From Bacteroidales bacterium (GTDB lineage Bacteria > Bacteroidota > Bacteroidia > Bacteroidales > NBLH01): a DNA stretch of 64,000 nucleotides. Made by a program: the position numbers and the translations under genes. The stretch covers positions 581 through 64,580 of the forward strand of contig JBNKJW010000075.1 in NCBI GenBank assembly GCA_050291445.1, read 5' to 3'. This document shows positions 13,024 to 53,154 of this stretch, in pieces. A model generated the notes under the pieces. That model had not been told where the DNA came from and ran no database searches. It saw nothing but the letters and a program-made list of their open reading frames with translations. Position 1 is the stretch's first letter. Every line of letters starts with the position of its first letter.

Positions 13024-13063
13024 TAATGCTTTGATTTACATGTTGTTGAGCGACACTAAAAAG

Positions 13064-13093
13064 ACCTCATGTTGTACGGAAACAACATGAGGT
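13064..13093. terminator. Hairpin, likely bidirectional terminator
   Basis: ACCTCATGTTG-N8-CAACATGAGGT, perfect 11-bp stem between convergent genes, A-run on the left and T-rich on the right. Confidence 0.75.
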
Positions 13094-13113
13094 GGTTTTG
13101 AAATACGCCCCTT

Positions 13114-13983: not shown

Positions 13984-14028
13984 ACTAATAAATTTAAAAT
14001 TTGTTTTTAACTATTGTATTTGCTTTTA

Positions 14029-15792: not shown

Positions 15793-16704
15793 ATGACTAA
15801 CGAAGATAAAATAAAAAAATGGCTAGCGGGCGAACTTTCAGATGCTGAGAAAAAGGAGTTTGAAAGCACTGAGGAGTTTACCGAAATAGACAAACTGACA
15901 AAGGCTTTAAGCAAATTTAAAGCTCCTGAGTACGATATTGATAGTGAATTTCAAAAACTTTCAAAAACTGTTATTCATAATAAAAAATCAAGGTATTTTA
16001 TAAAAAAAATCAGTCCTGTTGTTAAGATTGCCGCCATTTTTATCATTACTTTAACCATTGGCTACTTTTCTTATACCTACCTTAGTTCCAACAATCAGGA
16101 ATGGATTGCTGAGCAAACAAATTTGTATTTACCAGATTCGTCTTTCGTTTCATTAAATAAAGATTCAAAAGTGAGGTTTTCGGGCAAAAAGTGGGAGAAA
16201 GAACGTAATGTTGAGTTAAAAGGCGAAGCCTTCTTTAATGTAAAGAAAGGTGCAAAATTTAGTGTAGTAACTCAGCAAGGAGAAGTAAGCGTTTTGGGTA
16301 CTGAGTTTAGTGTTAAGGATTGGGATAATTATTATGAAGTTACCTGTTACAGCGGTCTTGTTAAAGTGGCTACTGCATTAAATACTGTTCGTTTAAAACC
16401 CAATACTTCTTTTAGGATTATTAATGAGAAAGATGAAACCTATACAGTTCCCGCTAAATCACAACCAGACTGGTTAAATGGTGAAAGTAGTTTTAAAAGC
16501 GTTCCTTTTAGCCTGGTGATTGATGAATTGGAAAGACAATACAAAGTTTCTGTAGAAACTGTAAATATTGACACCCATCAACTATTTACTGGTAGTTTTT
16601 CAAACAAAAATCTTGAAATTGCTTTAAAAGCTATTACAATTCCTGTAAATTCACGCTACAAGATTAATGGCAATCAAATTGTGATATCTTTTGAAGGTAA
16701 TTAG
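15793..16704 (+). CDS. FecR-family anti-sigma factor
   Basis: One TM segment, then LPDSSFVSLN, RNVELKGEAFFNV, VSVLGTEFSV, VIDELERQY; directly downstream of the ECF sigma. Confidence 0.92.
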   Translation: MTNEDKIKKWLAGELSDAEKKEFESTEEFTEIDKLTKALSKFKAPEYDIDSEFQKLSKTVIHNKKSRYFIKKISPVVKIAAIFIITLTIGYFSYTYLSSNNQEWIAEQTNLYLPDSSFVSLNKDSKVRFSGKKWEKERNVELKGEAFFNVKKGAKFSVVTQQGEVSVLGTEFSVKDWDNYYEVTCYSGLVKVATALNTVRLKPNTSFRIINEKDETYTVPAKSQPDWLNGESSFKSVPFSLVIDELERQYKVSVETVNIDTHQLFTGSFSNKNLEIALKAITIPVNSRYKINGNQIVISFEGN

Positions 16705-19231
16705 CGTTTTATTTTTTTCAGTATTTCTTCTTTCTATCAGTAGTTTTAGGTCTTTGGCTCAAAATGCAGAGGCTCAACCGCTTGATAGTGTGTTGCTTTT
16801 GCTCGAAAAGCAATACGATATTGTGTTTACCTATGCTGATGAAAACATAAAGGATATTTTTGTTATCCTTCCAAACAAAAACTTACCGCTTGATAAATGT
16901 TTGTTAAATCTTGAAAAACAAACCAAACTTGGTTTTAAAAAATTGAATTCCCGCTATGTTGCTATTCAAAACTATGTTATTGTAAGAGGTGTTGTACTCA
17001 ATAAATCGGACAAAAAACCCATTGAAGAAGTTTTTATCTATTCGGGAAACAACTATGCAGTAAGCGATAGTAATGGAATGTTTTCGCTAAAGCTAATACC
17101 TAAGGAAGATTCGGTATTTACGGTAAGGCATACTGCTTACAAACAAGTTGAACGAAAACTCATTAACAGCAATAAAGACACCTTTATTATTGAACTGGTT
17201 CCTAAGATAAAGGTTATTGGAGAAGTTGCTGTGCCTTATTTAGTGGAGGGCATTGGCAAACTACCCGATGGCTCTATTGAATTTAATGTAAGTGATGTGG
17301 AAGTGCTCCCGGGCTTGTCGGAACCGGATGTTTTGCACACCATACAAGTTTTACCAGGTATACAAAGTATCAACGAGACTGTTTCGGACATTAATACCAG
17401 GGGCGGAACCAATGATCAAACATTAGTATTGTGGGATGATGTAAAAATGTACCAAACGGGTCACTTTTTTGGGTTAATATCTGCATTTAATTCGCATTTA
17501 ATCAACAAAGTCTGTATTGTGAAAAATGGCACAAGTGCAGCTTATGACGAAGGCGTTTCGGGTATGATTGATATGCAGATGCAGGAATCCCTGGTTGCAA
17601 AACCAGAAGCCAGCATTGGGTTAAATATGCTTAGCACAGATGCAATAATAAAAACACCTTTATCGAAGAAACTTTCATTAATTGCAGGAGCCAGGCACTC
17701 CATAAATGAATTGGTAGCAACCCCAACTTATGAAAAATACTACGAAAGAGCGTTTAAGCATACCTTGCTTACGCAAAATCAAACAACTATTGATACAGTG
17801 GTTAGTCAATACCATAAATTTTCGTTTTATGATTTGACGGGTAAACTTTTATACGATATTTCGGAAAATAACAAATTAAGCCTTAGCCTGCTTAAAATAT
17901 ACAACAATATTGAATCAGGAGAAACAGCCATCATCCTTGATACTTTGTATGACAAAAAAAGTAAACTGAATCAATCCAGTTTATTAGCAAATTTTAGTTT
18001 TGCCCACAACTGGTCAGAAAACCAAACATTACAATTTTCTGCATTTGTTTCAAAATATCGGCTAAAAGGGCTCAATAGTTCGGAATTTGATAACCTAAAT
18101 CATCAACAAATAAACGAAGTGCTTGATTGGGGGCTAAAATTAAATTCTAAAATTGAGCTAACACCCAAAATTATATTTTCCAATGGATATGAGTTTAAAG
18201 AAACAGGGATTCGTAATGGCGACAATATTCAGCAACCGAGTTACAACAGGGATACGAAGGAGGTACTACGAATTCACTCTATTTACTCTGAGGCTGAATT
18301 AAGAGGATTGTTAAAAAAACTTTATTTGCGTGCTGGCCTGCGTGCCGATTATTTTGCAAAATTCAGCGAAATTTCACTTCAGCCACGATTGGCGCTAAAT
18401 TATGTACTAAACAAGTATTTTTCGTTGGAGCTACAAGCCGAAAAGAAAAGTCAGCACACTACTCAGTTAGTTGATTATCAAACGGATTTTTTGGGCATTG
18501 AAAAACGTAGATGGACATTAGCAAATAATGACCGTGTACCTTTGCTTAAAAGCCGGCAATTTTCATTGGGTGTTCAATATGGCCGTAAAGAGTTTCTTGT
18601 TTTACTTGGTGGATATGTTAAGCGGATAACAGGAATAATTTCGCCCAGTCAGGGTTTTCAAAATCAGTTTCAGTATGTTTATGCAATTGGTGAGTACAGT
18701 GCAAGGGGGATTGAGTTATTGGTAAATAACAAGTTTAACAGTTTAAATACCTGGATGAATTATACGCTTGCCAAAAACGATTACTACTTTCATGATCTTA
18801 CACCATCAATCTTTCCAAACAATTTGGATATCAGGCATGCATTAACCCTGGGTGGAAGTTATTCGTTTAATAGCTTTGTTTTTTCGTGTGGGGTAAGTTA
18901 TAAAACAGGAAAACCTTATACCAGACCTTCTGAAAATAGTTTAACTGGGCAAAATGAAATAATGTATCAAACGCCTAACAGTTCCAGGCTAAAAGATTAC
19001 ATCAGGGTAGATTTATCTGCCAAATACAATTTTTCAACTAAAAAAGTAAATGGCGAATTTGGTTTTTCAATATGGAACCTGTTTAATCGTGAGAATGACA
19101 TTAATATTTACCACCAACTTTCTGAAAATAAGCAGATTGAACAAATTGCCCAACATGCCCTTGGTTTTACACCTAATTTGAATTTGAGGTTGAGTTTAAA
19201 CCCATCTTCCGCTAAGCGGCTCCTGAAATAA
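16691..19231 (+). CDS. TonB-dependent receptor (signalling type)
   Basis: N-terminal STN-like segment, carboxypeptidase-like domain, plug motif LPGLSEPDVLHTIQVLPGI..INTRGGTNDQ; overlaps the fecR stop. Confidence 0.9.
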   Translation: MKVISVLFFSVFLLSISSFRSLAQNAEAQPLDSVLLLLEKQYDIVFTYADENIKDIFVILPNKNLPLDKCLLNLEKQTKLGFKKLNSRYVAIQNYVIVRGVVLNKSDKKPIEEVFIYSGNNYAVSDSNGMFSLKLIPKEDSVFTVRHTAYKQVERKLINSNKDTFIIELVPKIKVIGEVAVPYLVEGIGKLPDGSIEFNVSDVEVLPGLSEPDVLHTIQVLPGIQSINETVSDINTRGGTNDQTLVLWDDVKMYQTGHFFGLISAFNSHLINKVCIVKNGTSAAYDEGVSGMIDMQMQESLVAKPEASIGLNMLSTDAIIKTPLSKKLSLIAGARHSINELVATPTYEKYYERAFKHTLLTQNQTTIDTVVSQYHKFSFYDLTGKLLYDISENNKLSLSLLKIYNNIESGETAIILDTLYDKKSKLNQSSLLANFSFAHNWSENQTLQFSAFVSKYRLKGLNSSEFDNLNHQQINEVLDWGLKLNSKIELTPKIIFSNGYEFKETGIRNGDNIQQPSYNRDTKEVLRIHSIYSEAELRGLLKKLYLRAGLRADYFAKFSEISLQPRLALNYVLNKYFSLELQAEKKSQHTTQLVDYQTDFLGIEKRRWTLANNDRVPLLKSRQFSLGVQYGRKEFLVLLGGYVKRITGIISPSQGFQNQFQYVYAIGEYSARGIELLVNNKFNSLNTWMNYTLAKNDYYFHDLTPSIFPNNLDIRHALTLGGSYSFNSFVFSCGVSYKTGKPYTRPSENSLTGQNEIMYQTPNSSRLKDYIRVDLSAKYNFSTKKVNGEFGFSIWNLFNRENDINIYHQLSENKQIEQIAQHALGFTPNLNLRLSLNPSSAKRLLK

Positions 19232-19284
19232 TTGTTAAGCCCAACTTATCAATGTCGTTTAGTTAAGGTTGTACAGTAGCAGAA

Positions 19285-19377
19285 CGTCATTGCGAACATA
19301 AGTGAAGCAACTCCGAAGGACTCAGCGTAGCTAATCTTTTTAAAGGGATTACTTCGTCGTTCCTCCTCGTAATGACG
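19285..19377. repeat. REP-like palindromic element (GTCATTGCGA...TCGYAATGAC type)
   Basis: CGTCATTGCGA at 19285 and TCGTAATGACG at 19367 form terminal arms, with inner GAAGCAA/TTACTTC arms; related sequence inside uvrA at 29808-29894. Confidence 0.75.
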
Positions 19378-19684
19378 AATCAATTTGTTAACTAAACCAC
19401 ATTACACAACTTTTACTACAGAAGTTTTGATAATGGCAAACTGTTGCATTTATTTAAGGCAATGGATTGCAAAGGTTTGTATGCGATTTTGTGACCCAAT
19501 TCTGCTTAAGTTGGCTGGTTTTCATTCAATACAAGTTTTGAATTGCTCTTTTGTTTCACTGCACTAATAGATAATACCAATGACAGGCTTATCATGAAAA
19601 TTAGGTGATGAATTTAAAAGTGGCTGTAAATCAATACAATAATTCATTCAATTTAGTTTAATTTCGCAATTCCACTAAGCCTTT

Positions 19685-20599
19685 CTAATTTCTTCGTTGT
19701 AATTCACTATTATAATTAACGCCTAGTGTGGTCTGGTTCTCTTTTACCCAGTCAGTTAATTTTATTTTGCCAGTTGGTGCAGTTTTTACGTACAAAAGAT
19801 TGTCCATTAACCCTTTAATTTCAGCTCTCGTTATGGTAACATCCTTTTTAAGGAAGCTAATTAGCCTTCCGGCCAGGTAACCAATGTAAGGTGGTGCATT
19901 AAATACTTTCTTTTTTATTTTCAGGGTGCTCATAATGCTCTTTACCAGCTCTTTATAGCTAAATGTTTCTGGTCCAATGGCATTAATAATAGCATTTTCG
20001 GTTTTACTAATTTCGTTAATTATGATGTTTGCAAAATCATCAACATGAATGGGTTGAAGTTTATAATCCCCTTTTCCAAATACGCCAAATACTGGCAGGT
20101 GACGTGCCATCCAAGCAATGTTATTGATGAGGATATCCTGCTTACCAAATAATACAGCAGGACGAATGATAGAATAATTAACACCCAAATTCTGCAGGTA
20201 GTTTTCTAAAATACCTTTGCCTTTAAAATATTCCAAATCTGATTCAATCGAAGGATTAGTTATACTGACGTGGATAATGCGCTGAATTCCGGCATTTTTG
20301 GCACAATCAAATAAGACTTTTGTATTATCTACAGCGCTTTTATGATTAAACTTTTTATGATTAAATCGTACCCAATAGGTATTTATCAAAACATCATATC
20401 CTGTTAAAGATGCTGTTAATCTCTTAGAGTCATTAAAACTTAATGGTGCGACTTCTATTTTATTTCCAAAAGGGTTTGGTTTATTGGTTGAATTGGTTAG
20501 TGTTTTTACATGGTAACCAGCTGATAATAAGTTGGCTGTGATAGTTTTTCCGGAATATCCAAATGCTCCGGTAACTACAATTTTCTTTTTTGTTTTCAT
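19685..20599 (-). CDS. NAD-dependent epimerase/dehydratase-family (extended SDR, NDUFA9-like) protein
   Basis: VVTGAFGYSG Rossmann motif; IIHVSI, YFKGK, IIRPAVLFG, QPIHVDD. Confidence 0.88.
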   Translation of the reverse strand: MKTKKKIVVTGAFGYSGKTITANLLSAGYHVKTLTNSTNKPNPFGNKIEVAPLSFNDSKRLTASLTGYDVLINTYWVRFNHKKFNHKSAVDNTKVLFDCAKNAGIQRIIHVSITNPSIESDLEYFKGKGILENYLQNLGVNYSIIRPAVLFGKQDILINNIAWMARHLPVFGVFGKGDYKLQPIHVDDFANIIINEISKTENAIINAIGPETFSYKELVKSIMSTLKIKKKVFNAPPYIGYLAGRLISFLKKDVTITRAEIKGLMDNLLYVKTAPTGKIKLTDWVKENQTTLGVNYNSELQRRN

Positions 20600-20614
20600 A
20601 TTATTGAATATTTA

Positions 20615-20640
20615 AAAGTTTCAGAAAAAAATGAAACTTT
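20615..20640. promoter_or_regulatory. Candidate operator TTTCA-N8-TGAAA upstream of the SDR gene
   Basis: AAAGTTTCA-N8-TGAAACTTT, perfect 9-bp arms, 15 nt upstream of the start codon. Confidence 0.65.
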
Positions 20641-20652
20641 AAATTAAAAAAA

Positions 20653-21159
20653 TTATTTCATTAATTTTGCAAATGGACCCCAAAACCAATGCTCATCAGC
20701 TTTTAACAACTTGTCTAATGTTTTGTCGGCCTGTTTTGCAAATTTTTCTATTGCATTTAATCTATCTGTAAACTCTTTAGTATCAGTTTCATGTTCTGTT
20801 TCAGCTGCTTGTTTTATCTCACTTAATAGGTGTAGCATCGGATCCAGTTCTTTTTCTTTTCTTACTTTCATAATACGTTTTAAAATCAGCCACATGTCTT
20901 TTTCTCCAATAAAAAACTCTTTTCTCTCACCCAGTACATGTTCTTTGTACAGCATTCCCCAATCAATCAGCGTGCGTACGTTCATGTTTACATTGCCTCT
21001 TGATATTTGCAATGCATCCATGATGTCTTCGGTACAAAGAGCTTTGTTGGTAATTAAAAACAATCCATGAATTTGGGCCAGGGTTTTATTCATTCCCCAT
21101 TGCGAGCCCAGACTCCCCCATGACATGATAAATTTTTGCTGACTTTGTGATAGTTTCAT
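20653..21159 (-). CDS. GbsR/MarR-family transcriptional regulator
   Basis: QKFIMSWGSLGSQWGMNKTLAQIHGLFL, EDIMDALQISRGNVNMNVRTLIDWG, GERKEFF. Start ATG 21159, with TACATTTG box at 21164-21171 on the minus strand. Confidence 0.9.
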   Translation of the reverse strand: MKLSQSQQKFIMSWGSLGSQWGMNKTLAQIHGLFLITNKALCTEDIMDALQISRGNVNMNVRTLIDWGMLYKEHVLGERKEFFIGEKDMWLILKRIMKVRKEKELDPMLHLLSEIKQAAETEHETDTKEFTDRLNAIEKFAKQADKTLDKLLKADEHWFWGPFAKLMK

Positions 21160-21185
21160 AATACAAATGTATAAATATATTTCTG

Positions 21186-21209
21186 AACTTTCAATAAATA
21201 TTGAAAGTT
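21186..21209. promoter_or_regulatory. Candidate autoregulatory operator of the GbsR-family gene
   Basis: AACTTTCAATA-aa-TATTGAAAGTT, perfect 11-bp inverted repeat with core TTTCA-N8-TGAAA. Confidence 0.7.
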
Positions 21210-21453
21210 TAACTTTTGTTAAGGAAATGATTCTGAAATTAAAGAAGTAAATTAGCTCCTTTAGGTTCTGTAATTCTTTTTGCATGCCCTTTTTATTTAA
21301 GATAGTTAATGCGCTGATTGACTTTTTCTTATGTGAAAACCTGGTTGAAACTTGAATTAAGTTTCTGGTTTAATCAATAGCAAATTTCAGGTAATATTTC
21401 CGAACCGAGAAGAAATACACATTAATGTTGTTATTTTGGCATAGCTATAACTA

Positions 21454-21620
21454 AATTAGGTTCTGCTGAAAAAGTCAGAAGTACATTAGATACAACTTAG
21501 CGAAGCGATATCTTCGACAAAAGGGAGAAAAATTAGCAAAGCGAAGTCGTATATTAATACTTCGAGCTGAAGCTAATGAAGTAGATGATGTGCTTCTGGC
21601 TAGTCAAAGTTTCTGACGAG
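21454..21620 (+). mobile_element. Non-autonomous IS-end/MITE-like remnant
   Basis: First 53 bp shared with 5681-5733; AGTCAGAAGTACAT is matched by imperfect complement ATGTGCTTCTGGCT near 21588-21601; no transposase ORF. Confidence 0.5.
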
Positions 21621-21661
21621 ATTTTATTAGGCCATAAAATGTAAGTGCAAAGAAAAATAAG

Positions 21662-21952
21662 ATGTTTTACCAAAAACCTTGCACTTTAAATTCTAAAAAA
21701 TCATGTAAGGCACTAGATATTAAAAGTATAAGCGTTTTTCAGCAAACCCTAATTATTCCAGATCCGTGCTACTACCACAAACACGAAACAACCAAAATCT
21801 TTGATTTGTTTTATGAACTAACCACTGCCGAAGGATATCATCCAAGTCCAACAAAATTAAACTTCATAATTACCATAGTTATTGGCATGCTTTTAGGATT
21901 GATTATTGGAAAAATATTTACACAAAAGCCTCAAAAAAAACAGCATCATTGA
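21662..21952 (+). CDS. Hypothetical small membrane protein (start uncertain)
   Basis: 96 aa ORF with a C-terminal TM segment (FIITIVIGMLLGLIIG) followed by basic residues. Confidence 0.4.
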   Translation: MFYQKPCTLNSKKSCKALDIKSISVFQQTLIIPDPCYYHKHETTKIFDLFYELTTAEGYHPSPTKLNFIITIVIGMLLGLIIGKIFTQKPQKKQHH

Positions 21953-21999
21953 ACTGAATATTAAACAATTGCGCAAACCATCGCATGTCTCTCTTCAAC

Positions 22000-22470
22000 C
22001 TACAAATACCTAAAATCCTTAAACATAGCGGCCTGCCCTATCCTGGTGTTTTCTTCGTCAAGAACGTTCCATAACAACACATCCTTAATTTCAAACCTTT
22101 TCCCTGATTTTGAAATTCTTATTCCTGAATAATTATTGGCGTAGCCATTTTTTCTTACCTCATAGAGAAATTTCTCCCTTTGCTCTCGCTCATCTTGTTC
22201 GGCAGAGTATTTTGAAGGCAGGCTGGTGAATTCGTCCCAGTTCATTTCAAAAAGTTGAAGCGCCGCTCTATTGCCATAAATAAATACAGGATCGTCACTT
22301 GCATTGTGCGAAAGCAATACGTAATCAGCGTTAAAAGCCTCTACAGACTGATTTTCAACACTATCTGAAAAATCTACAATTTCAATTCCTGCAAGTTTTT
22401 TTAAACTGATTGTTACCCGATAAACATATTCTTTTAAATAATCATTCGCTGAACAAGTGTACTTTTCCAT
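22000..22470 (-). CDS. Stand-alone MEKHLA (PAS-like) domain protein
   Basis: VLLSH..DPVFIYGNRAALQLFEMNWDEFTSLPSKYSAE..REKFLYEVRKNGY..YSGIRISKSGKRFEI..WN..GQAAMF. Confidence 0.88.
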   Translation of the reverse strand: MEKYTCSANDYLKEYVYRVTISLKKLAGIEIVDFSDSVENQSVEAFNADYVLLSHNASDDPVFIYGNRAALQLFEMNWDEFTSLPSKYSAEQDEREQREKFLYEVRKNGYANNYSGIRISKSGKRFEIKDVLLWNVLDEENTRIGQAAMFKDFRYL

Positions 22471-22666
22471 AAAACGCTAAGGTTGCTTAACTATATAATT
22501 TCCAACGAAAATAGTATATTTGCTAAAATCAAACGGAAAAAATTAACACAAAAAACCAAACACTAAATAATTTTCCTCCAATGAAACCCTCGTGGAGAGA
22601 TCTAATATTTAAAGTTAGCTCCTCCATAGAAGTTCATAGTTAATTATCAAACGCATAACTATAATA

Positions 22667-23743
22667 ATGAAATCAAATCTACTTATACTTTTTACTGTTT
22701 GCATAATCCTGTCTTGCTCAAACGATACATCGGAACAAACCACTAATTTAAAAAAAACACCAAAAGAGATCGCATCATTAATAACAGATGAGCTTTTGTC
22801 AAGGCAGGAATTTATGCTTTACAATACTCCTGATGTAAAAGCGTTGCACTATGCTGAAATTTGCACAGCCTACGGAGCCCTTAAACTTGCCGGCAAATTT
22901 AATGACCAGCAAACCATGGAAAAGCTCATTGTTCGTTATGACAGTGCAACACCAAAATACATTACAAACACCGAAAACCATGTAGATGCCAATGTTCATG
23001 GTATACTTTCACTTGAAATATACCTTCAAACCAAAAAGCCAGAATATTTAGAGCTGGGAATAGCTTTTGCCGATGGACAATGGAAGGACACGCTTCCTGA
23101 TGGCCTTACCTCGCAAACCAGGTACTGGATAGATGATATCTATATGATTGGCTGTCTTCAGATACAAGCTTTTAGAGCGACCAATGATACAATCTACCTT
23201 GATAGGGCAACAAAAGAAATTGATTCGTACACTAAAAAACTACAACAACCAAATGGTTTATTCTTCCATGGAGCTGATGCCCCATTTTTCTGGGGAAGAG
23301 GTAATGGCTGGGTTGCTGCTGGTTTTGCTGAATTAATTGCAGTTCTGCCAGAAAGCAACCAATATTACCCTTCTATCTTAAATGCTTACAAAAAAATGAT
23401 GAAAACCCTGCTAGAAAATCAGGATCAGGATGGAATGTGGCACCAGGTAATTGATAAACCAGAATCGTTTAAAGAAACCTCATCAACAGCCATGTTTGGT
23501 TTTGCAATGACAGTGGGAGTTAAAAAAGGCATCCTGCCCAAAAAACCATATACAACAGCCTACACAAAAGCCTGGAATGCACTTACAAGCTACTTAAATG
23601 AAGATGGAAAAATAAGGGAAGTCTGTGTTGGAACCGGACAAAGTAAAGACATTAACTATTATTTTGACCGCCCCAGAACAGTAGGTGATTTTCATGGCCA
23701 AGCCCCAATGTTATGGTTTGCAGATGCGTTGTTGATGGAATAG
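22667..23743 (+). CDS. GH105/GH88-type unsaturated glycuronyl hydrolase, lipoprotein
   Basis: Lipobox IILSC; YWIDDIYM, GLFFHG, FWGRGNGW, QDQDGMWHQV, ETSSTAMF; TATATTTG box at 22515-22522. Confidence 0.88.
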   Translation: MKSNLLILFTVCIILSCSNDTSEQTTNLKKTPKEIASLITDELLSRQEFMLYNTPDVKALHYAEICTAYGALKLAGKFNDQQTMEKLIVRYDSATPKYITNTENHVDANVHGILSLEIYLQTKKPEYLELGIAFADGQWKDTLPDGLTSQTRYWIDDIYMIGCLQIQAFRATNDTIYLDRATKEIDSYTKKLQQPNGLFFHGADAPFFWGRGNGWVAAGFAELIAVLPESNQYYPSILNAYKKMMKTLLENQDQDGMWHQVIDKPESFKETSSTAMFGFAMTVGVKKGILPKKPYTTAYTKAWNALTSYLNEDGKIREVCVGTGQSKDINYYFDRPRTVGDFHGQAPMLWFADALLME

Positions 23744-23910
23744 TCCCAACTCATTAAAGACGTATACATATAAATATCAAGCATTTAGCAAAACACAGAT
23801 TGTATACTAAAGCTTTAATAATAAAGGCGCTGGTTTAGGATTGCGTTGCAAAATTGAATAAAAAAATATGATAATAGAATGTTAGTATAGGTTTAATGCA
23901 AAGCGACCGG

Positions 23911-24036
23911 CCTCATAAAAAATTGCTTACAGCTTGCAATCAAACCTTAGCAAGACCGGGAAGCTTCGAACTTGTTTCGAAGATCACCTGGCCGCCCTTA
24001 GGTTTGATAAAAGATGGGAGCAATTTTTTAGGGAGC
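23911..24036. repeat. Nested palindromic intergenic element
   Basis: Three nested arm pairs: TAAAAAATTGCT / AGCAATTTTTTA, TCAAACCT / AGGTTTGA, CTTCGAA / TTCGAAG. Confidence 0.65.
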
Positions 24037-24108
24037 CTTGATTAATTGCTCTTGGTTTGCCATTTATTCTATTCACCTTTGTTTTACCAAAATTATAAAT
24101 AAAATTGA

Positions 24109-25071
24109 ATGGAAAAATTTGTAGACTTAATTTTTGCCAGGGATATTGAAAAAATTGAAAAACTGGTTAAAGAGGGAACATTAGATGTAAATGAATATGT
24201 CAGTCTCAATAGAAGCGCATTATCACTGGCAGCAGCATGTGGCTTTACAGATGTAATGGAGTGCCTTATAAACCTGGGTGCCGATATCAATCTGAATGAC
24301 GAAGGTAATTTAGGTTACACCCCCATTGAGCACGCAGCCCGCGAAAACAAAATTGAAGCCCTTAAATTGTTAATTGAAAAAGGCGTAGAAATTGACAAAG
24401 GAAACACAATTGATTCAAATGCATTGATTGGCGCCTGCATTGCTGCAAATAATGAGGTACTTGAAACTTTAGTAAAAAACGGGGCTAATATTAACCATGT
24501 TGATAATATCGGACAATCGGCCTTGCACTATATTTGTCTATATGCCAAACAATGGGGCAGCGGAACCATTACCCAAACCATTAATGGAGTTACTACTGAG
24601 CTCGAAAATCCAAGGTTTAAAGAACATACCAAAATATTTAACACTTTATTAGAAAATGGTGCGGATGTTAACCTGTTAGCAAATTATGGTTACGTTCCAC
24701 TTCACTTAGCTGCCGAAACTGATACACCAAGTTTTATTGAACCATTGATAAAAAAAGGAGCCAATGTCAACTTTAAAAACTCAAAAGGATTTTCGCCACT
24801 TCATGCAGCATGCGACAGGGGATATATTGAACCTGCCAGCCTGTTAATTGACCATGGAGCTGATATAAATATAGTTGACAATGAGGGCTTTACACCAATT
24901 CTTGGTGCCACGCTTTCGCAAAACGTTGATTTGGTAAAATTGCTACTTGAAAAAGGTGCCCCAAAAGATATAAAAGCTAAAATAAATTACGAACAGGTAG
25001 CTGAAGGAGACGATGCACTAGCCCTGGCAAAAAAGTTGAATAATGAGCAGCTAATTGAGCTTTTAAAATAG
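24109..25071 (+). CDS. Ankyrin-repeat protein
   Basis: Repeated G-x-T/S-P/A-L-H-x-A and LL..GA.VN motifs (GYTPIEHAA, GQSALHY, GYVPLHLAA, GFSPLHAA, GFTPILGA). Confidence 0.93.
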   Translation: MEKFVDLIFARDIEKIEKLVKEGTLDVNEYVSLNRSALSLAAACGFTDVMECLINLGADINLNDEGNLGYTPIEHAARENKIEALKLLIEKGVEIDKGNTIDSNALIGACIAANNEVLETLVKNGANINHVDNIGQSALHYICLYAKQWGSGTITQTINGVTTELENPRFKEHTKIFNTLLENGADVNLLANYGYVPLHLAAETDTPSFIEPLIKKGANVNFKNSKGFSPLHAACDRGYIEPASLLIDHGADINIVDNEGFTPILGATLSQNVDLVKLLLEKGAPKDIKAKINYEQVAEGDDALALAKKLNNEQLIELLK

Positions 25072-25149
25072 GCTTTTTAACAAATAAACTTTTTTTAGAG
25101 TATATTCGAAGAACCTTTTTAATTCAAACCTTCTTCAAATAGAAATAAG

Positions 25150-25860
25150 ATGATAAATAAAAGCATTGCACTGACCATAGCTATACTATTTAACAGTTTT
25201 ATTTACGGACAAAGAATTGGATTTGATATTATTGATGATTCAAAAGTTTCTTTGTGGATGCCAACTACTGAAACAGAATACCAGCATGCTTATTCCTTTG
25301 GTGCTTCGGAAATGGAGTCGACGCTAATAATCCTATTTTCAGAAGGTAGATATTATGCCCAGATTCGAAAATACAAAATGGATAAAAGTACAAACTGGGA
25401 GTGGGCTCCCTATTTTGTAAATCTAAAAAATGTAAGTATTCAAGGAAATAGGTTCTATTCAGATAAAACCAATGGCGAATTTGTAATATATCAACCTAAA
25501 AAACAAGAAGTTAAAGGATTAAAAGTATTCAAATCGTGGAGTGGCTGGGAAGAAGGAATTTATGAAATTGGAGTGGTAAATGATTCTCCGGTATCAGCCT
25601 ATTTTGACGGTAAATTTACTCAGGCATCTTTAAGAAAATTACAACCTGAAGAATTAAAAGGAATGTCGAAATTTGATTTAAAAGTGATGAGAAATGAAAT
25701 TTTTGCCCGCTACAGTTACAAATTTAAGCCTGGCGGCAAAATGGATAGCTATTTTAAGGAATATAACTGGTATTCAGGCTGGTACAATAATGTGGATGAG
25801 TTTTTAACCAGTCTGGAAATTGAAAATATTAAGCTGATAAAACAGTTTGAGAAAAAGTAA
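25150..25860 (+). CDS. Secreted YARHG-domain protein
   Basis: Signal peptide; C-terminal LKVMRNEIFARYSYKFK..MDSYFKEYNWY..LTSLEIENIKLIKQFE. Confidence 0.82.
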   Translation: MINKSIALTIAILFNSFIYGQRIGFDIIDDSKVSLWMPTTETEYQHAYSFGASEMESTLIILFSEGRYYAQIRKYKMDKSTNWEWAPYFVNLKNVSIQGNRFYSDKTNGEFVIYQPKKQEVKGLKVFKSWSGWEEGIYEIGVVNDSPVSAYFDGKFTQASLRKLQPEELKGMSKFDLKVMRNEIFARYSYKFKPGGKMDSYFKEYNWYSGWYNNVDEFLTSLEIENIKLIKQFEKK

Positions 25861-25906
25861 AAGTTGAACACAAAATTAAAAACCGGATAAACAAAATTTA
25901 ATATCT

Positions 25907-26265
25907 ATGATTGGAGTAACAGCATTCTTTCTATTTTTTATAGCACTAGTGTTAAGTCAAATTTGATATTTCTGGTAATTAGGGGCTGTATCAATAGCTT
26001 CGCATTCATCTAATATGATGATTTATCAAATCTGGGACCGATTAACGGGCCAGAAGAAGAGCGCATATTTCTTGATAGCAATGAGGAAGCAAGTGTGCAA
26101 CTAATGACTGATGCAGGCGAACAGGAATGGCTCTATTACATGGGCGGATTTCGGCCCAATAACAACTGGGGATCTGTAGGCGGGCTTTTTATATTGAACG
26201 TAGATGAAGAAATTATCAAAGAAGCTATCCTGCAAATCATAGAACGTTATTCTAAAAAAGATTAA
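25907..26265 (+). pseudogene. Probable degraded membrane-anchored ORF (not in the ORF track)
   Basis: ATG 25907 gives a hydrophobic peptide stopping at TGA 25964; a shifted frame has TAA 26011, then 83 open codons (YDDLSNLGPINGPEEE...IIERYSKKD*) to 26265. Confidence 0.5.
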
Positions 26266-26276
26266 AAAAAGCTTCT

Positions 26277-26864
26277 ATGAAAGGATCTAATTCAATAGGA
26301 TTACTGTTTTTAATAGGGCTTTTTTGTGGCTGTTCTCATTACATTACCAACACTGCTGGATACATCCGACCACCACAAAACTATAAGTTTAGCTACGCCA
26401 AAAAGGCAAAAAAATTAACAACCAGTACAATCATTGATACAACAGCAATCTATTATCTTTACAATAGCAACTTTTACCGAAATTCCAATAAGTACAAAAA
26501 CACCAATAACTACATTAGATTTTACGCTACTGGCCAATTTAAACTTCAGGGAGTAAAAATTCACCCAAAACTTGAAGATATTAATAATACGAATGTAGGT
26601 TTAATTGGTTATTACAAGCTAAAAGGAAATGTTATAAAAATGCAAATTTATTCGGATATTGATGGTGGTTCAATACAGCTTAAATTTGGCCTTATCGAAG
26701 AAAACGGCAACCTGGTTATTTTAAACGAAAATCCAAAAACTTATTTTCAAATAGGATATTCAGAGAAAGGGATTAAAAGAAAGATTAAAAATTCGTATTT
26801 TAACCCCAAATATTATCAGAAAATTTACTTTGAAAATATGACTTATGATAAGCCAGATTGGTGA
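26277..26864 (+). CDS. Hypothetical lipoprotein
   Basis: 195 aa, lipobox-like LFCGC, Tyr/Asn-rich; no family recognised. Confidence 0.7.
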   Translation: MKGSNSIGLLFLIGLFCGCSHYITNTAGYIRPPQNYKFSYAKKAKKLTTSTIIDTTAIYYLYNSNFYRNSNKYKNTNNYIRFYATGQFKLQGVKIHPKLEDINNTNVGLIGYYKLKGNVIKMQIYSDIDGGSIQLKFGLIEENGNLVILNENPKTYFQIGYSEKGIKRKIKNSYFNPKYYQKIYFENMTYDKPDW

Positions 26865-26884
26865 TAAAAACTAAAAATAATAAA

Positions 26885-27241
26885 ATGAAAATAATTTTTA
26901 TAACTATTTCAATACTAGCAAGTTTCATGGAGTGCAATTCAAAAAATGACCAACAACAAAACAACTGTTTTTCGGAAGAAAATTTTCAAAAAGTTTATGA
27001 ATATATTAATGAACAGATTAACAAAGCTGAAACTGAATTTATATCCTTTAGTGGATATGATATTTACTTAGATTTTGAAAAGACCAGGATTTTAGTAAAA
27101 GAAAAAGACAAAAATTACACATTATCAATAATTGAAAAGACTGATATTTATTCCCTCAACAAGAGTGCAAAGGGAAACGAAAGAATGGTAAAAACAGCCC
27201 ACAAGTTGTTTTGTGAACTACTGGCTAATGCACTAAAATAA
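26885..27241 (+). CDS. Hypothetical exported protein/lipoprotein
   Basis: MKIIFITISILASFMEC signal-like start; ATG 26885 preferred to GTG 26858. Confidence 0.6.
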   Translation: MKIIFITISILASFMECNSKNDQQQNNCFSEENFQKVYEYINEQINKAETEFISFSGYDIYLDFEKTRILVKEKDKNYTLSIIEKTDIYSLNKSAKGNERMVKTAHKLFCELLANALK

Positions 27242-27363
27242 AAAAGCCATTAGACATTAGTGTCACTTGGCTAATTTAGCAGAAATATCAAATTTGACTT
27301 AAAACTAGTCATTTCTATAATCCAACTAATGACCAATTACCCAACGACCAATATCTAAGTGAG

Positions 27364-30300
27364 ATGGAAAAAATCATACTAAAAGGCATCACCCACCACA
27401 ACCTGAAAAATATTGATGTAGAAATCCCGCATGATCAATTTACCGTTATTTCAGGGGTTTCCGGTTCAGGCAAATCCACTTTGGCCGAAGATGTAATTTA
27501 TAAAGATGCCGAACGACGATACCTTGAAACTTATTCGATACATGCACGACAATTATTAAACAAACTCAGGAGACCTGAAGCTGAACACATTAGCGGTCTG
27601 AGGCCAGCTATTCTGCTGCAACAAAAAAACTATGTCAACTCGCCCCGTTCAACAGTTGGAACGCTTACCGAAATCCATGATTTATTACGTTTATTTTTTG
27701 CCAGACTGGGTCAATCAACTAATAATCAACTCAATATAAAAAGAAGCTTGTTTTCTTTCAATACTCCTGAAGGGGCATGCCCAAACTGCAAGGGGCTTGG
27801 CTTAAGCGATAAAATCGACCCGGATTTATTGATTTCAGACCCGGAAAAATCGTTACGCGAAGGTGTTTTAGTCATTACTACTCCTACAGGTTACATTATT
27901 TATTCGCAAGTAACAATGGATGTAATGGCACAGGTTTGTGAATCGGAAGGATTCTCAGCGGACACCGCCTGGAAGGATTTAACTGAATATCAGAAGAATG
28001 TGGTATGGTATGGCAGCCAGAAAATAAAAATTCCCTTTGGGAAACACACCCTTGAATCTCGCATGAAATGGAAAGGCATAACTGCCAAACCGCGCGAAGA
28101 GGGCTACTACAAAGGCATCATCCCTGTAATGGAGGAAATCCTGAAACGAGACAGAAATCCGAACATCCTCCGTTTTGTAAAAACGGTGAAATGTGAAGCA
28201 TGTAGTGGGACTCGTTTTAATGAAAATGCTTTGAGTGTTAAGCACAACGGAAAAAACATTGCTGATTTACTTTCCCAAAGCATCAAGGAACTAAAAAGCT
28301 ATTTTCAAAACCTTAAATTCAGTCAGAAAGAAAAGGAAACAGGTGAGCAAATCAGAAAAGAATTAATAAAAAAAGCTGAAGTACTTGAAGAACTGGGTGT
28401 TGGTTATTTAACCCTAGACAGAAGCGCTGACACACTCTCGGGTGGCGAAGCTGCACGAATTCGACTGAGTGGTCAAATCAATTCAAAACTCAGAGGCGTG
28501 TTGTATGTTTTTGATGAACCAGCTGCCGGACTGCACGCAGCAGACATGGAAAAGCTGATGAATAAAATCACAGGATTATGCGAGTTAGGAAATACGGTTA
28601 TAGCCGTTGATCACAATGAACAAATTATTCGAAAAGCTGACTACATTGTTGAATTAGGCCCTGCCGCAGGGGTAAATGGTGGAGAGCTGATTTACCAGGG
28701 AATTCAACCAAATTGGAACGATTTAGCACAAAAGAGCAAAGAATCCAAAACTGTCACCTATTTATCTGGACAACAACAACTTGAAATAGTCAAGCACCAA
28801 GGTTGTAGGGAAAATATTAATATTTTTGGGGCAAAATCAAGAAACCTTAAAAACCTGAATATTTCATTCCCATTAAATCAATTGGTTGTTGTAACAGGCG
28901 TTTCAGGAGCAGGAAAATCAAGTTTATTAAAATATACCTTAGCAAATTACCTTCGAAAAAAGCTGAATGGGATCAATATCGAACATGGAAAATTTGAAAA
29001 AATTGAAGGAATTGAAAACATTGATAAAATCATTGAGGTAGATCAAGCTCCCATTGGAAAAACGCCCCGAAGCAATCCAGCCACCTACACCAAATTATTC
29101 GATCTTATTCGCGATTTTTATGCAAAACTGGATGAAGCAAAAAAAACTGGCCTGACAAAATCAAACTTTTCCTTCAATACCAAAGGAGGAAGGTGCGAGA
29201 ATTGCCAGGGAGCTGGCTATTTACAGACTGGCATGCACTTTTTAGGCAATGTGGATATTGTTTGCCCTGAATGCAATGGGAAACGATTTCAGGGAAAAGT
29301 GCTAAAAGTTAAATACAAAGAAAAAAATGTATTTGACATACTGGAATTATCTATTAATCAAGCACATGAATTCTTTATTGATAGCCCAAAAATTGAAAAA
29401 CCACTGAAAGTATTGGTCGATTTGGGTTTAGGCTATTTGAAACTTGGCCAGCGCTCAAGTACTTTATCAGGTGGCGAGGCCCAGCGGGTGAAACTGGCCG
29501 CTGAATTAAGCAAAACTTCTACTGGTAAAACTTTGTATATTTTAGATGAGCCTTCACGTGGTTTGCACTTGCATGATATCAATGTTCTACTGAAATCTTT
29601 CTACAAATTGCTGGATAATGGTAATTCGGTGATGCTAATTGAACACAACCTGAGATTGGTCCAGGCAGCTGATTATGTTATCGATTTAGGGCCGGAAAGT
29701 GGTGAAGAAGGCGGAGAAATTGTATTTGAAGGGAAGCCGAAGGAATTGATAGAGTGTAAAGAGTCGAGAACCGGGCAGGCATTAAAAAAGCTTCTTGGTT
29801 CACAAAAGGATTCCTTCGTCCTTTGCCCTATGAATGACGAAAAGGAAGAAGCGAATAACAACGTCATTGCGAGGAGCTACAACGAAACAATTTCTAACAT
29901 AACAATGAAAGGCGTTTCCAGCAATAACCTCAAAAACATTAATCTTGAACTACCTGTAAATCAACTAATTGTCTTCACCGGAGTTTCTGGAAGCGGAAAA
30001 TCTTCACTCCTGTTCGACACCCTTTATGCCGAAGGGCAAAAACGTTTTAACGAAAACTTTTCGCCTTATATCCGAACCATGCTAGGGCAGCAGAAAAAGG
30101 CTGATTTTGAACAGATTTCTGGCCTAAGCCCGGTGATAGCCATTAAACAAAAGCGATTAAAGCCCAATGCCCGCTCTACAGTAGGCACCTTAACCGAAAT
30201 TTATGATTATTACCGACTTTTGTATTCCCGAATTGGTCAGTTAAGGTACCCCCAAATGGCTGATTCTTTAACTGCATCTCATTTTTCCTTTAACCAAAGC

Positions 30301-32310
30301 CAGGGGTTCTGCAAGCATTGCGAAGGTTTGGGTTTTCAATACATTCCTGATGCAGAAAAAGTGGTTACTGATGTTAAAAAATCACTGATTGATGGCGCAC
30401 TTAATGGAACAAAAACAGGGAAGTTTTATGGTGATTTAAATGGTCAGTATGTAGCTGCTTTACAAACAGTTGGCAAAGCAAAAGGCATTGATTTTTCAGT
30501 TGCGTGGAAAGAATTGAGCGAAAAAGCAAAAAAAATCGCTTTTGAAGGTTGTGGAGAGGAGCTTTTTGATGTAAAATGGTACTACAAACGAAAAAACAGG
30601 GAAGGCATCCACGAATTTCAAAGCAAATGGCCAGGGTTCTCAGGTCATATTTTAGAAGAATACCAGCGAAAACAAGCGGACAAAAGAGGTGAAGAATTAT
30701 TGCCTTTAATGAAAAAACAAGCATGCACTCATTGCAAAGGTAAAAGGCTGAATGACAAATCATTATCAATAGAAATTTCGACTAAAAATATCAGTGAACT
30801 TACTGCTTTAACCATCGATGAAAGCATCCTGTTTTTTAAACAAAATGGAAATGCCTTAAACCAGGCTGAAAAAACCATATTTGAACCCATTGCAATAGAA
30901 GTAATTCGTCGGCTGGAACTAATTCACCGGAATGGCCTCTCCTACCTTAGTCTCGACCGGCTTACCGGAACACTTTCAGGAGGCGAAGCACAACGATTGC
31001 GTTTAGCAGGTATGTTAGGTTCCGAGTTGAGTGGAATAACCTATATTCTTGATGAGCCAACAGCCGGTCTCCACCCTTCAGACACCAAGGGATTGATTGA
31101 GATTTTAAAACAAATCAGAAATTTAGGAAATACGGTTATCATTGCCGAACATGATGAAGAAATTATTAGGGCAGCTGATTATTTGGTGGATTTGGGGCCT
31201 GGAGCTGGTGAAAATGGAGGGGAAATTGTTGCAAAAGGAAATTACGCGCAATTACTTCAATCAATAGACTCACTAACAGCTAGTTATCTAAGCAAAAAAG
31301 AAGCTCAGGTTTACAGAAAACAAAAAGAGTTTAATAACAAAGCCTTTGAAATTAAGAGAGCTTCCGCTAACAACCTGAAAAATATAGATGCTGATTTTTA
31401 CGCTTCCTGCATCAATGTTATAACAGGTGTTTCAGGGAGTGGTAAATCAAGTTTACTTTTTGATGTGGTGCAGCAATCGCTAAAACAAAACAAGCCCATG
31501 AATTGCTCATCTTTCAATGTCTTGGAACAATTTGAAAACATTGTATTTGTTGATCAGGAAGAAGCAAGCACCTCAAGTCTTTCAAGTATTGCCACATTCA
31601 CAGGTATTTTTGATTACATCAGAGACGAATTTGCCAAAGAAGCGAAAAAAACAAACGCTAAAATCAACAAAAACTACTTTTCATACAACACCAAAGGCGG
31701 GCGCTGCGAAATCTGTAAAGGGCAAGGTTTTACCAAAACAGCCCTCGACTTTTTACCGGATGTATTTTCAGTTTGCACAGACTGCAATGGAAAAAGATAC
31801 ACAAGCGAAGCTTTAAAATACACCTTAAACGGAAAATCCATTGCTGATGTGCTGGAATTATCCGTTCAGGAAGCAGCAGACTTTTTCACCCACTATCCTA
31901 AAATAAAAAACAGACTAGAAGTACTGATAAAAACAAATTTGCCCTACCTGAAAATTAGTCAGCGACTGAATACTTTGTCGGGAGGTGAGTTACAGCGTTT
32001 AAAACTGGCTGTAGAGTTTATGAAGCCCTCAAAAGGCAAAAGCTTGTACCTGTTGGATGAACCTACCACCGGACTGCATTTTGAAGACATTAAACAGTTG
32101 ATTCTGTTGTTTGACAAACTCACACAAAGTGGTCATACACTGGTAATTACAGAGCACAATCCAACCTTAATTTCAAATGCTGATTACATTGTTGATTTAG
32201 GAGTTGGTGGTGGAGATAAAGGTGGGGAAATTGTTGTATCTGGGAATGTTAAGGCAATTAAGGAAAACAATATTTCTAAAACTGGCAGGTATTTGAAATT
32301 GGTGTTTTAG
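27364..32310 (+). CDS. uvrA: Double-length UvrA-family ABC ATPase (excinuclease ABC subunit A-like)
   Basis: Four Walker A motifs (GVSGSGKS x3, GVSGAGKS), four LSGGE signatures, four DEP Walker B motifs and eight CxxC pairs: two tandem UvrA-like modules. Confidence 0.92.
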   Translation: MEKIILKGITHHNLKNIDVEIPHDQFTVISGVSGSGKSTLAEDVIYKDAERRYLETYSIHARQLLNKLRRPEAEHISGLRPAILLQQKNYVNSPRSTVGTLTEIHDLLRLFFARLGQSTNNQLNIKRSLFSFNTPEGACPNCKGLGLSDKIDPDLLISDPEKSLREGVLVITTPTGYIIYSQVTMDVMAQVCESEGFSADTAWKDLTEYQKNVVWYGSQKIKIPFGKHTLESRMKWKGITAKPREEGYYKGIIPVMEEILKRDRNPNILRFVKTVKCEACSGTRFNENALSVKHNGKNIADLLSQSIKELKSYFQNLKFSQKEKETGEQIRKELIKKAEVLEELGVGYLTLDRSADTLSGGEAARIRLSGQINSKLRGVLYVFDEPAAGLHAADMEKLMNKITGLCELGNTVIAVDHNEQIIRKADYIVELGPAAGVNGGELIYQGIQPNWNDLAQKSKESKTVTYLSGQQQLEIVKHQGCRENINIFGAKSRNLKNLNISFPLNQLVVVTGVSGAGKSSLLKYTLANYLRKKLNGINIEHGKFEKIEGIENIDKIIEVDQAPIGKTPRSNPATYTKLFDLIRDFYAKLDEAKKTGLTKSNFSFNTKGGRCENCQGAGYLQTGMHFLGNVDIVCPECNGKRFQGKVLKVKYKEKNVFDILELSINQAHEFFIDSPKIEKPLKVLVDLGLGYLKLGQRSSTLSGGEAQRVKLAAELSKTSTGKTLYILDEPSRGLHLHDINVLLKSFYKLLDNGNSVMLIEHNLRLVQAADYVIDLGPESGEEGGEIVFEGKPKELIECKESRTGQALKKLLGSQKDSFVLCPMNDEKEEANNNVIARSYNETISNITMKGVSSNNLKNINLELPVNQLIVFTGVSGSGKSSLLFDTLYAEGQKRFNENFSPYIRTMLGQQKKADFEQISGLSPVIAIKQKRLKPNARSTVGTLTEIYDYYRLLYSRIGQLRYPQMADSLTASHFSFNQSQGFCKHCEGLGFQYIPDAEKVVTDVKKSLIDGALNGTKTGKFYGDLNGQYVAALQTVGKAKGIDFSVAWKELSEKAKKIAFEGCGEELFDVKWYYKRKNREGIHEFQSKWPGFSGHILEEYQRKQADKRGEELLPLMKKQACTHCKGKRLNDKSLSIEISTKNISELTALTIDESILFFKQNGNALNQAEKTIFEPIAIEVIRRLELIHRNGLSYLSLDRLTGTLSGGEAQRLRLAGMLGSELSGITYILDEPTAGLHPSDTKGLIEILKQIRNLGNTVIIAEHDEEIIRAADYLVDLGPGAGENGGEIVAKGNYAQLLQSIDSLTASYLSKKEAQVYRKQKEFNNKAFEIKRASANNLKNIDADFYASCINVITGVSGSGKSSLLFDVVQQSLKQNKPMNCSSFNVLEQFENIVFVDQEEASTSSLSSIATFTGIFDYIRDEFAKEAKKTNAKINKNYFSYNTKGGRCEICKGQGFTKTALDFLPDVFSVCTDCNGKRYTSEALKYTLNGKSIADVLELSVQEAADFFTHYPKIKNRLEVLIKTNLPYLKISQRLNTLSGGELQRLKLAVEFMKPSKGKSLYLLDEPTTGLHFEDIKQLILLFDKLTQSGHTLVITEHNPTLISNADYIVDLGVGGGDKGGEIVVSGNVKAIKENNISKTGRYLKLVF
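29808..29894. repeat. REP-like sequence embedded in frame in the uvrA inter-module linker
   Basis: AACGTCATTGCGA at 29860-29872 is identical to 19283-19295; GATTCCTTCGTC...AATGACGAA (33 nt from 29809) aligns without gaps to the 33 nt from 19347. Confidence 0.7.
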
Positions 32311-41698: not shown

Positions 41699-42235
41699 AT
41701 GACAATCAAGTATTTACACAAAACAACATTTTTAATTCTGATTTGCATATTATTTTATGGATTAAAACCTTCAAAAGTATTTTCACAAGACAGTGATTTT
41801 AAGCGCAACACTATTTATGCTGGTTTTGCCAATGAAGGAGCCCTTTATTCAATCAATTATGATAGAATCTTTAGCCAAAATAAAAAATTTGCATGGAGCT
41901 ATCGTATAGGATTTTCAATTTTGGAAGAAGCTGTAGTCATGCCAGTTGGCGTTTATTTGCTAACAGGAAAAGGCAACTCACATGCAGAATTTAGTTTTAC
42001 TGTCATCCCCTATATTGATAAATACCAAAGCATGTTTAAAGAGGATGATCTCTCGGATAAATACATCTACCTGGTTCCGGGAGTCGGATACAGGTTTCAA
42101 AAACCAAATGGAGGGCTATTCTTTAAAGTTTTTGGTTCACCAACCGTTTTTTTAGACCCTCCATCAAGTAATTTTTGGAAAATGGATCCGAAATTAAGAT
42201 TTATGGTTGGTGGAGGACTTGGCTTTAGTTTTTGA
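41699..42235 (+). CDS. Hypothetical outer-membrane beta-barrel-like protein
   Basis: Signal peptide; RNTIYAGF, YSINYDRIF, VGYRFQKPNGGLFFK and C-terminal GLGFSF aromatic end. Confidence 0.72.
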   Translation: MTIKYLHKTTFLILICILFYGLKPSKVFSQDSDFKRNTIYAGFANEGALYSINYDRIFSQNKKFAWSYRIGFSILEEAVVMPVGVYLLTGKGNSHAEFSFTVIPYIDKYQSMFKEDDLSDKYIYLVPGVGYRFQKPNGGLFFKVFGSPTVFLDPPSSNFWKMDPKLRFMVGGGLGFSF

Positions 42236-53003: not shown

Positions 53004-53154
53004 AACCTGGAACTTAGAAATTGGTGTATTAAAACTTAGAAATTGGTGTATTAGAACTTGGTATATTGAATTGAAATTGTTAACAAAACCATAAAACATG
53101 ATCTTAATTAGTGCCAATTAGTGAAATTAGTGGCAAACAAGTAAAAGAAAAAAT

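Follow-up and report, generated by a model that had tools for sequence, protein, structure and literature searches.

A palindromic repeat fragment translated in frame in the inter-module linker of a double-length UvrA from a Bacteroidales bacterium

How does DNA that resembles a dispersed intergenic palindrome come to be translated inside a UvrA protein? The question is raised by a 64,000-nucleotide (nt) stretch of a Bacteroidales genome (assembly GCA_050291445.1, contig JBNKJW010000075.1, positions 581 to 64,580; hereafter the window). It contains, at 27364..32310 on the + strand, a double-length UvrA-like gene encoding 1648 residues, recognized by its open reading frame (ORF) and translation, by family models and by matches to solved structures. 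A first-pass annotation of the window had noticed that the linker between the two UvrA modules is encoded by DNA matching an intergenic palindrome near 19.3 kb, and had offered two origins: insertion of the repeat into a tolerant linker, or fusion of two adjacent uvrA-like genes by read-through of a repeat-containing spacer. Our analysis favours insertion. Very probably a fragment of the repeat was fixed in frame in the unstructured linker of an already fused UvrA and has since decayed in a near-neutral manner.

The inter-module linker comprises residues 808-845 (38 residues; 29785..29898, +), as delimited by orthologue alignment, linker lengths and predicted local distance difference test (pLDDT) scores. 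Within it, the peptide KDSFVLCPMNDEKEEANNNVIARSYNETIS (residues 815-844 of ORF 27364..32310) is encoded at 29806-29895, and the insert consists of two inverted arms of a repeat family at 29807-29895. The first arm (29807..29840, - strand) is read as DSFVLCPMNDE. It is followed by a 20-nt spacer (29841..29860, +), defined by alignment with an orthologue from another species, and by the second arm CGTCATTGCGAGGAGCTACAACGAAACAAT (29861..29895, +), which is read as NVIARSYNETIS. The match to the intergenic palindrome was reproduced, with coordinates corrected by 1-2 nt. AACGTCATTGCGA is identical at 13/13 positions and has just two exact occurrences in the window (19283-19295 and 29860-29872), and the 33-nt GATT.CTTCGTC...AATGACGAA aligns without gaps (25/33) between 19347-19379 and 29809-29841. 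When the intergenic 33-mer was compared with both strands of the whole window, just two matches of at least 22/33 were found, at 29809 (+, 25/33) and 29860 (-, 24/33), and both are the arms in the uvrA linker.

The similarity of an A-rich linker to a short repeat might be fortuitous. Each arm alone is short, and BLAST with the linker DNA returns just 14-23-nt matches to family copies. A profile was built from 55 repeat arms with the uvrA locus excluded and run genome-wide with nhmmer. It hit 29861-29895 (+) with E=0.0012 (21.6 bits), ranking 34th of ~80 family hits, and 29807-29840 (-) with E=0.54 (13.3 bits). Taken alone the latter arm would be compatible with chance, but it lies inverted 20 nt from the significant one, and from the E-value we estimate a chance of ~1e-5 for a match of this grade within 100 nt of a given site. 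The second arm also shares a 16-nt exact match with the copy on contig C126. The first is homologous to the arm GATGACTTCGTCGTATCTCCTTGTCATGACG of a sister species, and where the first arm passes into the spacer both species have the motif GACGAAAAGGAA, which the family consensus does not contain. A chance resemblance is hardly credible given two neighbouring inverted hits, one of them significant against a genome-wide repeat model that left the locus out, and given a sister-species copy whose match to the family has E=5e-11 and which is a homologue of the insert studied here.

The intergenic counterpart of the insert is an intact family member at 19248..19410 (+), a miniature inverted-repeat transposable element (MITE) of ~160 nt with terminal inverted repeats (TIRs) that lies between convergent ORFs (16691-19231, +; 19685-20599, -). 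Its arms occupy 19283-19313 and 19344-19378, and a module B occupies 19304-19336. The modules follow one another in the order arm CGTCATTGCGA...GAAGCAAC, 34-nt module B GAAGCAACTCCGAAGGACTCAGCGTAGCTAATC, short loop and inverted second arm GATTACTTCGTCGTTCCTCCTCGTAATGACG, and the two arms pair into one long hairpin (z=-2.4 for this copy). Full copies of the element are present at least seven times in the genome, on at least seven contigs (E 1e-34 to 1e-50). Merging the hits of two profile models gave 61 repeat loci in the 6.9-Mb genome. The family arms conform to CGTCATT[GAC]CGA...GAAG[CGT]AAT, and arms and module B recur elsewhere in other combinations. Full-length intergenic members are ~120-160 nt long, carry TIRs, and are non-coding and dispersed. 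An Rfam scan of window positions 19000-30200 gave no match at E<=1, so the repeat corresponds to no described RNA family, and a literature search with the arm sequence matched only unrelated primers.

A second composite MITE (~230 nt, ends GGTTATTTACACC / GGTGTAAACTAC) was observed at C35:~1010-1260, C42:~53040-53290, C126:~41970-42220 and C183:~12900-13150 and on contigs C158, C121 and C186. It combines an inverted module B, a headless arm, a GC-rich hairpin (CCCCGAGCATCGGGG) and a long arm, and its CGTC ends abut (AATGACGTCATT).

CGTC tags are a general feature of the family, with ~55 arms starting CGTCATT or TGTCATT. In uvrA, CGTCATTGCGA opens the second arm and AATGACG (+ strand) closes the first, so that the tagged ends of the two arms face each other; the tail-to-head order of the halves reported in the first-pass annotation is therefore real. 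Di Nocera et al. (2013; PMC3733652) call inverted pairs HH dimers if their tags lie outside and TT dimers if they lie inside. Inverted dimers with spacers of 1-100 bp occur in both forms here: the tags lie outside in the 160-nt MITE, and inside in the C35, C42, C126 and other composites as well as in uvrA. Because TT pairs recur in the second composite element, the order seen in uvrA is a normal, less common arrangement of the family and not a relic of two truncated neighbouring elements.

Only one of the 61 loci, the uvrA insert, lies inside a long open frame, where the palindromic repeat is read through within an otherwise intact, conserved protein. Further in-frame copies, a search for which had been suggested as a check, did not turn up in a peptide-motif scan of all ORFs of at least 150 residues either. 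The TIRs of intergenic copies (CAATGTCGTTTAGTTAAGG / TTGTTAACTAAAC.ACATTG) are missing from the uvrA copy.

To place the insert in time we compared orthologues. In what follows, G000 is this genome, G008, G005 and similar labels are genomes of relatives, P000x are proteins, and L013 and L014 are metagenome contigs. Seven further species genomes from the genus encode orthologous double UvrAs (62-83% identity; three cut by contig ends), and none was found in 19 other families of the order. A protein homologue search added three further relatives, P0002, P0005 and P0003; junction-peptide scans of genome and metagenome contigs were swamped by generic UvrA patterns and yielded distant proteins only. 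Residues L807 and I846 are invariant in the orthologues, and nothing is conserved in between. In eight orthologues (G008, P0005, G005, G006, G010, G003, G004 and G001) the linker measures 20-24 residues, is repeat-free and is unrelated in sequence, compared with 38 residues in G000. These eight double-length homologues do without the repeat-derived stretch, in keeping with an insertion. P0005, from a relative of G008, is among those with no insert. P0002, encoded on L014 in an independent metagenome assembly of the same species as G000, has the insert with three substitutions, which makes an assembly artefact unlikely.

P0003, from the sister species mentioned above (JGI metagenome contig L013), has a 51-residue linker, DDFVVSPCHDE-KETTSRC-VIAKTMNEDEATPKDSAELI. 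Its DNA consists of an arm, 20 nt, an arm and module B; it shares codon position and reading frame with the G000 insert and is much less eroded. BLAST searches against the G000 repeats gave E=5e-11 for module B (97% identity over 36 nt) and E=5e-8 for the long arm (94% over 35 nt), and the first arm was 86% identical. The G000 and P0003 inserts are collinear with 48/67 identical positions (p<0.0005 versus shuffles), which, together with the common motif GACGAAAAGGAA, indicates that both descend from one event. We also considered whether the linkers of G008 and P0005 are decayed remnants of the same insert, as hinted at by a common PKD tripeptide; this was rejected, since their alignment was no better than that of shuffled sequences (p=0.37-0.95).

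These comparisons also bear on the proposal that two adjacent uvrA genes were joined by read-through of a spacer containing the repeat, the linker being the old intergenic spacer. The position of the insert exactly at the module junction would be explained in this way, and intergenic family members typically lie just past stop codons; the 19.3-kb copy, for example, begins 17 nt after the stop of ORF 16691-19231. However, the fused gene occurs with a short, repeat-free linker in the seven genus genomes and the one metagenome species listed above, and most genus genomes with the fused gene carry no copy of the repeat family. BLAST hits to the family numbered 27 in G000, 17 in G008 and 5 in G005, with 0-2 weak hits in each of 28 other genomes; by this count the family is confined to the subclade of G005, G008 and G000. 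Among 30 relatives, none with two separate adjacent uvrA genes was seen. Furthermore, UvrA-UvrA junctions of the same layout are found in other phyla (Poribacteria, Planctomycetota and Chlamydiota). As the fusion is genus-wide and present in other phyla whereas the repeat is limited to one subclade, the fusion is older than the repeat, and read-through of a repeat-containing spacer did not create the double UvrA. We regard this second of the two proposed origins as very improbable, while insertion into a tolerant linker is supported by the repeat-free orthologues, the sister-species copy, the variability of the linker even between phyla and the low predicted confidence of the linker structure described below.

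The following course best accounts for the data. Very probably a fragment made up of two inverted arms with CGTC tags, and at first also of a module B behind them, was fixed in an ancestor common to G000 and at least one sister species. It would have survived because its reading frame was open and the linker tolerated extra residues. Decay, probably near-neutral, followed: in-frame deletions removed module B and 6 nt of one arm in G000, where the arms now have 72-83% identity with good copies and the potential to form a hairpin has disappeared. What remains is translated as ~29 extra linker residues with no demonstrated function of their own. Relatives with a repeat-free linker may have lost the fragment or may never have had it.

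The state of the insert fits this course. In the frame used by uvrA, module B contains a TAG codon in 14/28 genomic copies. The translated module B of the P0003 species (L013:12527-12559) has GAG at this codon, and in G000 the TAG-bearing segment was lost via in-frame deletions, suggesting that only an open-frame version could persist. Folding of the genic copies does not exceed that of shuffled sequences (z=-1.3 and -0.07, versus -2.4 for the intergenic copy). Between the two strains the insert differs at 3/90 nt, compared with 2.67% at third codon positions gene-wide. An AlphaFold2 model of residues 600-1039, computed from an 18-row alignment, gave pLDDT values below 50 at residues 815-817 and 819-842; in blocks of ten residues the module-1 domain preceding the linker reached 73-89 and the first blocks of module 2 following it 67-87. 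Linker length and sequence are unconserved even across phyla. As the only genic copy, with an open-frame filter, no hairpin, a rate of change like that of third positions and low pLDDT, the insert is best described as a probable passenger: the data point to tolerated, decaying sequence in a disordered tether.

It may instead have been put to use, the ~29 residues tuning the reach of the tether in a pseudo-dimer or the palindrome acting in cis as a translational pause, RNase site or internal terminator. The open frame has been kept across two species and through several in-frame insertions or deletions, and the insert persists though the family is otherwise excluded from genes. An open frame is, however, needed merely to make the downstream module and is no sign of a function of the insert. 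The peptide is poorly conserved between the two species, which have 29 (G000) and 36 (P0003) repeat-derived residues, and eight orthologues manage without it. The lack of folding in the genic copies and the near-third-position rate of change likewise speak against such a role, and we consider it improbable.

Several observations weigh against insertion followed by neutral decay and should be set beside it. The insert has no TIRs, and nowhere else in the genome do arm, spacer, arm and module B follow one another as a unit. The net gain relative to the closest empty orthologue (G008) is 42 nt for a repeat-derived stretch of 87 nt, implying that either the host linker was replaced or deletions followed. 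A UvrA tree computed with the linker removed has the topology (G005,(P0003,(G000,(G008,P0005)))), with support of 91/93 at the critical node. Placing P0003 outside G000+(G008,P0005) implies that the insert was gained and later lost or replaced in G008/P0005. A tree that unites G000 and P0003, and so needs a single gain, was nevertheless not rejected (approximately unbiased test, p=0.135). The case for neutrality draws on three substitutions and on a structure prediction from a shallow alignment, and would need to accommodate retention across species ~20% diverged in protein; extra linker length could be useful.

Short direct repeats offer limited guidance on the route of entry. The 7-nt AAAAGGA (29804-29810 / 29840-29846) brackets the first arm and ATAACAA (29855-29861 / 29899-29905) the second, but such repeats are just marginally unusual (P=0.04) and may be insertion scars or a reflection of A-rich composition. 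A model of two insertions, each with target duplication, does not fit as it stands, since the empty site rebuilt from the 7-nt repeats is out of frame.

What kind of protein received the insert? NCBIfam UvrA equivalogs (NF001503, TIGR00630) match four stretches along the 1648 residues, and each module separately matches solved UvrA chains. Because of these matches we take the protein to be two complete UvrA units in tandem. Class I UvrA chains align with both modules in two stretches, skipping chain residues ~120-280, which form the UvrB-binding domain, whereas Deinococcus radiodurans UvrA2 (2vf7) aligns with both as a single continuous stretch. Both modules thus lack the UvrB-binding domain, ~150 residues that separate the first Walker A region from the insertion domain, as is typical of class II UvrA, and the protein is a fusion of two modules without this domain. 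Consistent with this, the precomputed Pfam list of P0002, which is 98% identical to the double UvrA, does not include PF17760. With the domain missing from both halves, the protein resembles a pseudo-dimer of UvrA2-type units in a single chain and probably does not act in canonical UvrAB repair. Ordinary uvrA genes of ~970 codons are present elsewhere in the genome (C28:~11525-14308 and C230:~6384-8039), and the three UvrA-like genes together make up ~0.15% of it.

Other long UvrAs invite comparison. Like the double UvrA, the proteins behind the 1809-position 'excinuclease ABC subunit A' model NF001885 and the long UvrAs of Planctomycetota and Poribacteria have two UvrA units per chain and a short variable linker. 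The double UvrA scores 1114 bits with NF001885, however, under the model's cut-off of 3054 bits, and the ~2300-residue Planctomycetota UvrAs differ from it in carrying PF17760, while both modules here are without the UvrB-binding domain. Such ~2300-residue UvrA-like proteins with PF17760 (among P0006-P0121) are common in Planctomycetota (Gemmataceae, Fimbriiglobus) and other groups, and align across the module junction of the double UvrA. No usable published classification of UvrAs that includes tandem fusions turned up in the literature. For annotation, the double-length UvrA is best recorded as an old fusion, with no UvrB-binding domain in either module, that was not made by the repeat.

In-frame insertions of repetitive extragenic palindromic (REP) sequences and of Rickettsia palindromic elements (RPEs) have been published, uvrA included, and the insert described here is one more case. 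The first-pass annotation had named RPEs as a precedent; this is apt, but a closer one is provided by intragenic REPs in uvrA itself. GTAG- and CGTC-tagged REPs recur in uvrA, uvrB, uvrC, polA, recBCD and dnaE2 (Di Nocera, De Gregorio & Rocco 2013, BMC Genomics 14:522, PMC3733652), and the tagged repair gene is often the sole tagged gene of its genome (PMC3733652). A 1995-residue UvrA of Opitutus terrae holds two REP inserts (PMC3733652, supplement). Bacteroidetes are among the phyla with CGTC repeats, for which no dedicated transposase has been reported (PMC3733652).

The family described here resembles the CGTC REPs of PMC3733652 in being short palindromes with a terminal CGTC/TGTC tag, usually in inverted pairs, that are mostly intergenic and located after genes, with occasional in-frame copies that are often dimers encoding 20-30 residues. 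It differs from CGTC-1 to -4 in the folding of its arms, which lack the 8-9-bp stem and 4-5-nt loop and pair only with a partner arm. Single arms form at most 4-5 bp (ATTGC/GCAAT) plus 2 bp and fold with -1 to -3 kcal/mol (z between -1.2 and +0.6). An A-T start is present; the arms end in ...GCAA(T/C) followed by CT, CC or TC, and a clear CCA tail was not seen. Since single arms are not self-contained stem-loops, we did not file the family in CGTC-1 to -4. In addition, the arms belong to larger composite MITEs that have TIRs and an extra 34-nt module, the genic dimer is of the TT type, called rare for CGTC repeats in PMC3733652, and the insert sits at a tandem UvrA fusion junction, a site not recorded there.

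With RPEs, of which RPE-4 and RPE-6 are CGTC-4 and CGTC-1 (PMC3733652), the insert shares the translation of a dispersed palindrome in frame in a functional protein, at a structurally tolerant place. Compared by description only, the two differ in spread: RPEs occur in dozens of genes per genome (Ogata et al. 2000, 2002, as summarised in PMC10969869), whereas here a single locus is genic and many unrelated genes are not involved. Bacterial MITEs also give in-frame fusions, examples being intragenic ERIC, QMITE1 of Coxiella and MITEb/e of Anabaena (review PMC10969869). The intergenic members resemble such MITEs in their TIRs, size, dispersal and lack of coding capacity. In contrast, the uvrA copy contains internal modules only and is not a complete MITE insertion.

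At this locus selfish palindromic DNA has become linker sequence of a protein, a clean example that comes from a new lineage and can be dated by comparison. Three stages are visible (the empty site, a well-preserved insert and a decayed one), and the open-frame filter can be seen in the change from TAG to GAG. It also adds one more independent data point to the unexplained recurrence of such inserts in uvrA. That the sole genic copy of 61 lies in a UvrA paralogue, in an unrelated Bacteroidota-type genome, repeats the pattern of Di Nocera et al. and could reflect a mechanism-based bias of REP-like palindromes for uvrA and other excision-repair genes, beyond mere tolerance. We think this rather unlikely, with a slim chance of being right; if true, the bias might arise via capture of hairpin DNA in repair-associated synthesis or through selection for altered repair proteins.

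Two minor observations concern the gene and possible mobilizing enzymes. An antisense ORF of 122 codons inside the uvrA gene (window 30401-30769, -) is presumably spurious. The genome contains ten Y1_Tnp matches, and a RAYT-type Y1 transposase adjoining the family was considered and rejected, as family arms flanked none of the nine that were checked; in this the family again resembles the CGTC REPs, which have no associated transposase. Some of the Y1 genes are flanked by other hairpins. Those at C227:29754-30095 and C34:15160-15504 are IS200/RAYT-like, have such hairpins on both sides (CCGTCTGCTTTAGCTGACGG; arrays of GGGGCGTTAGCCCC) and resemble REPtron-type units that belong to another repeat family.

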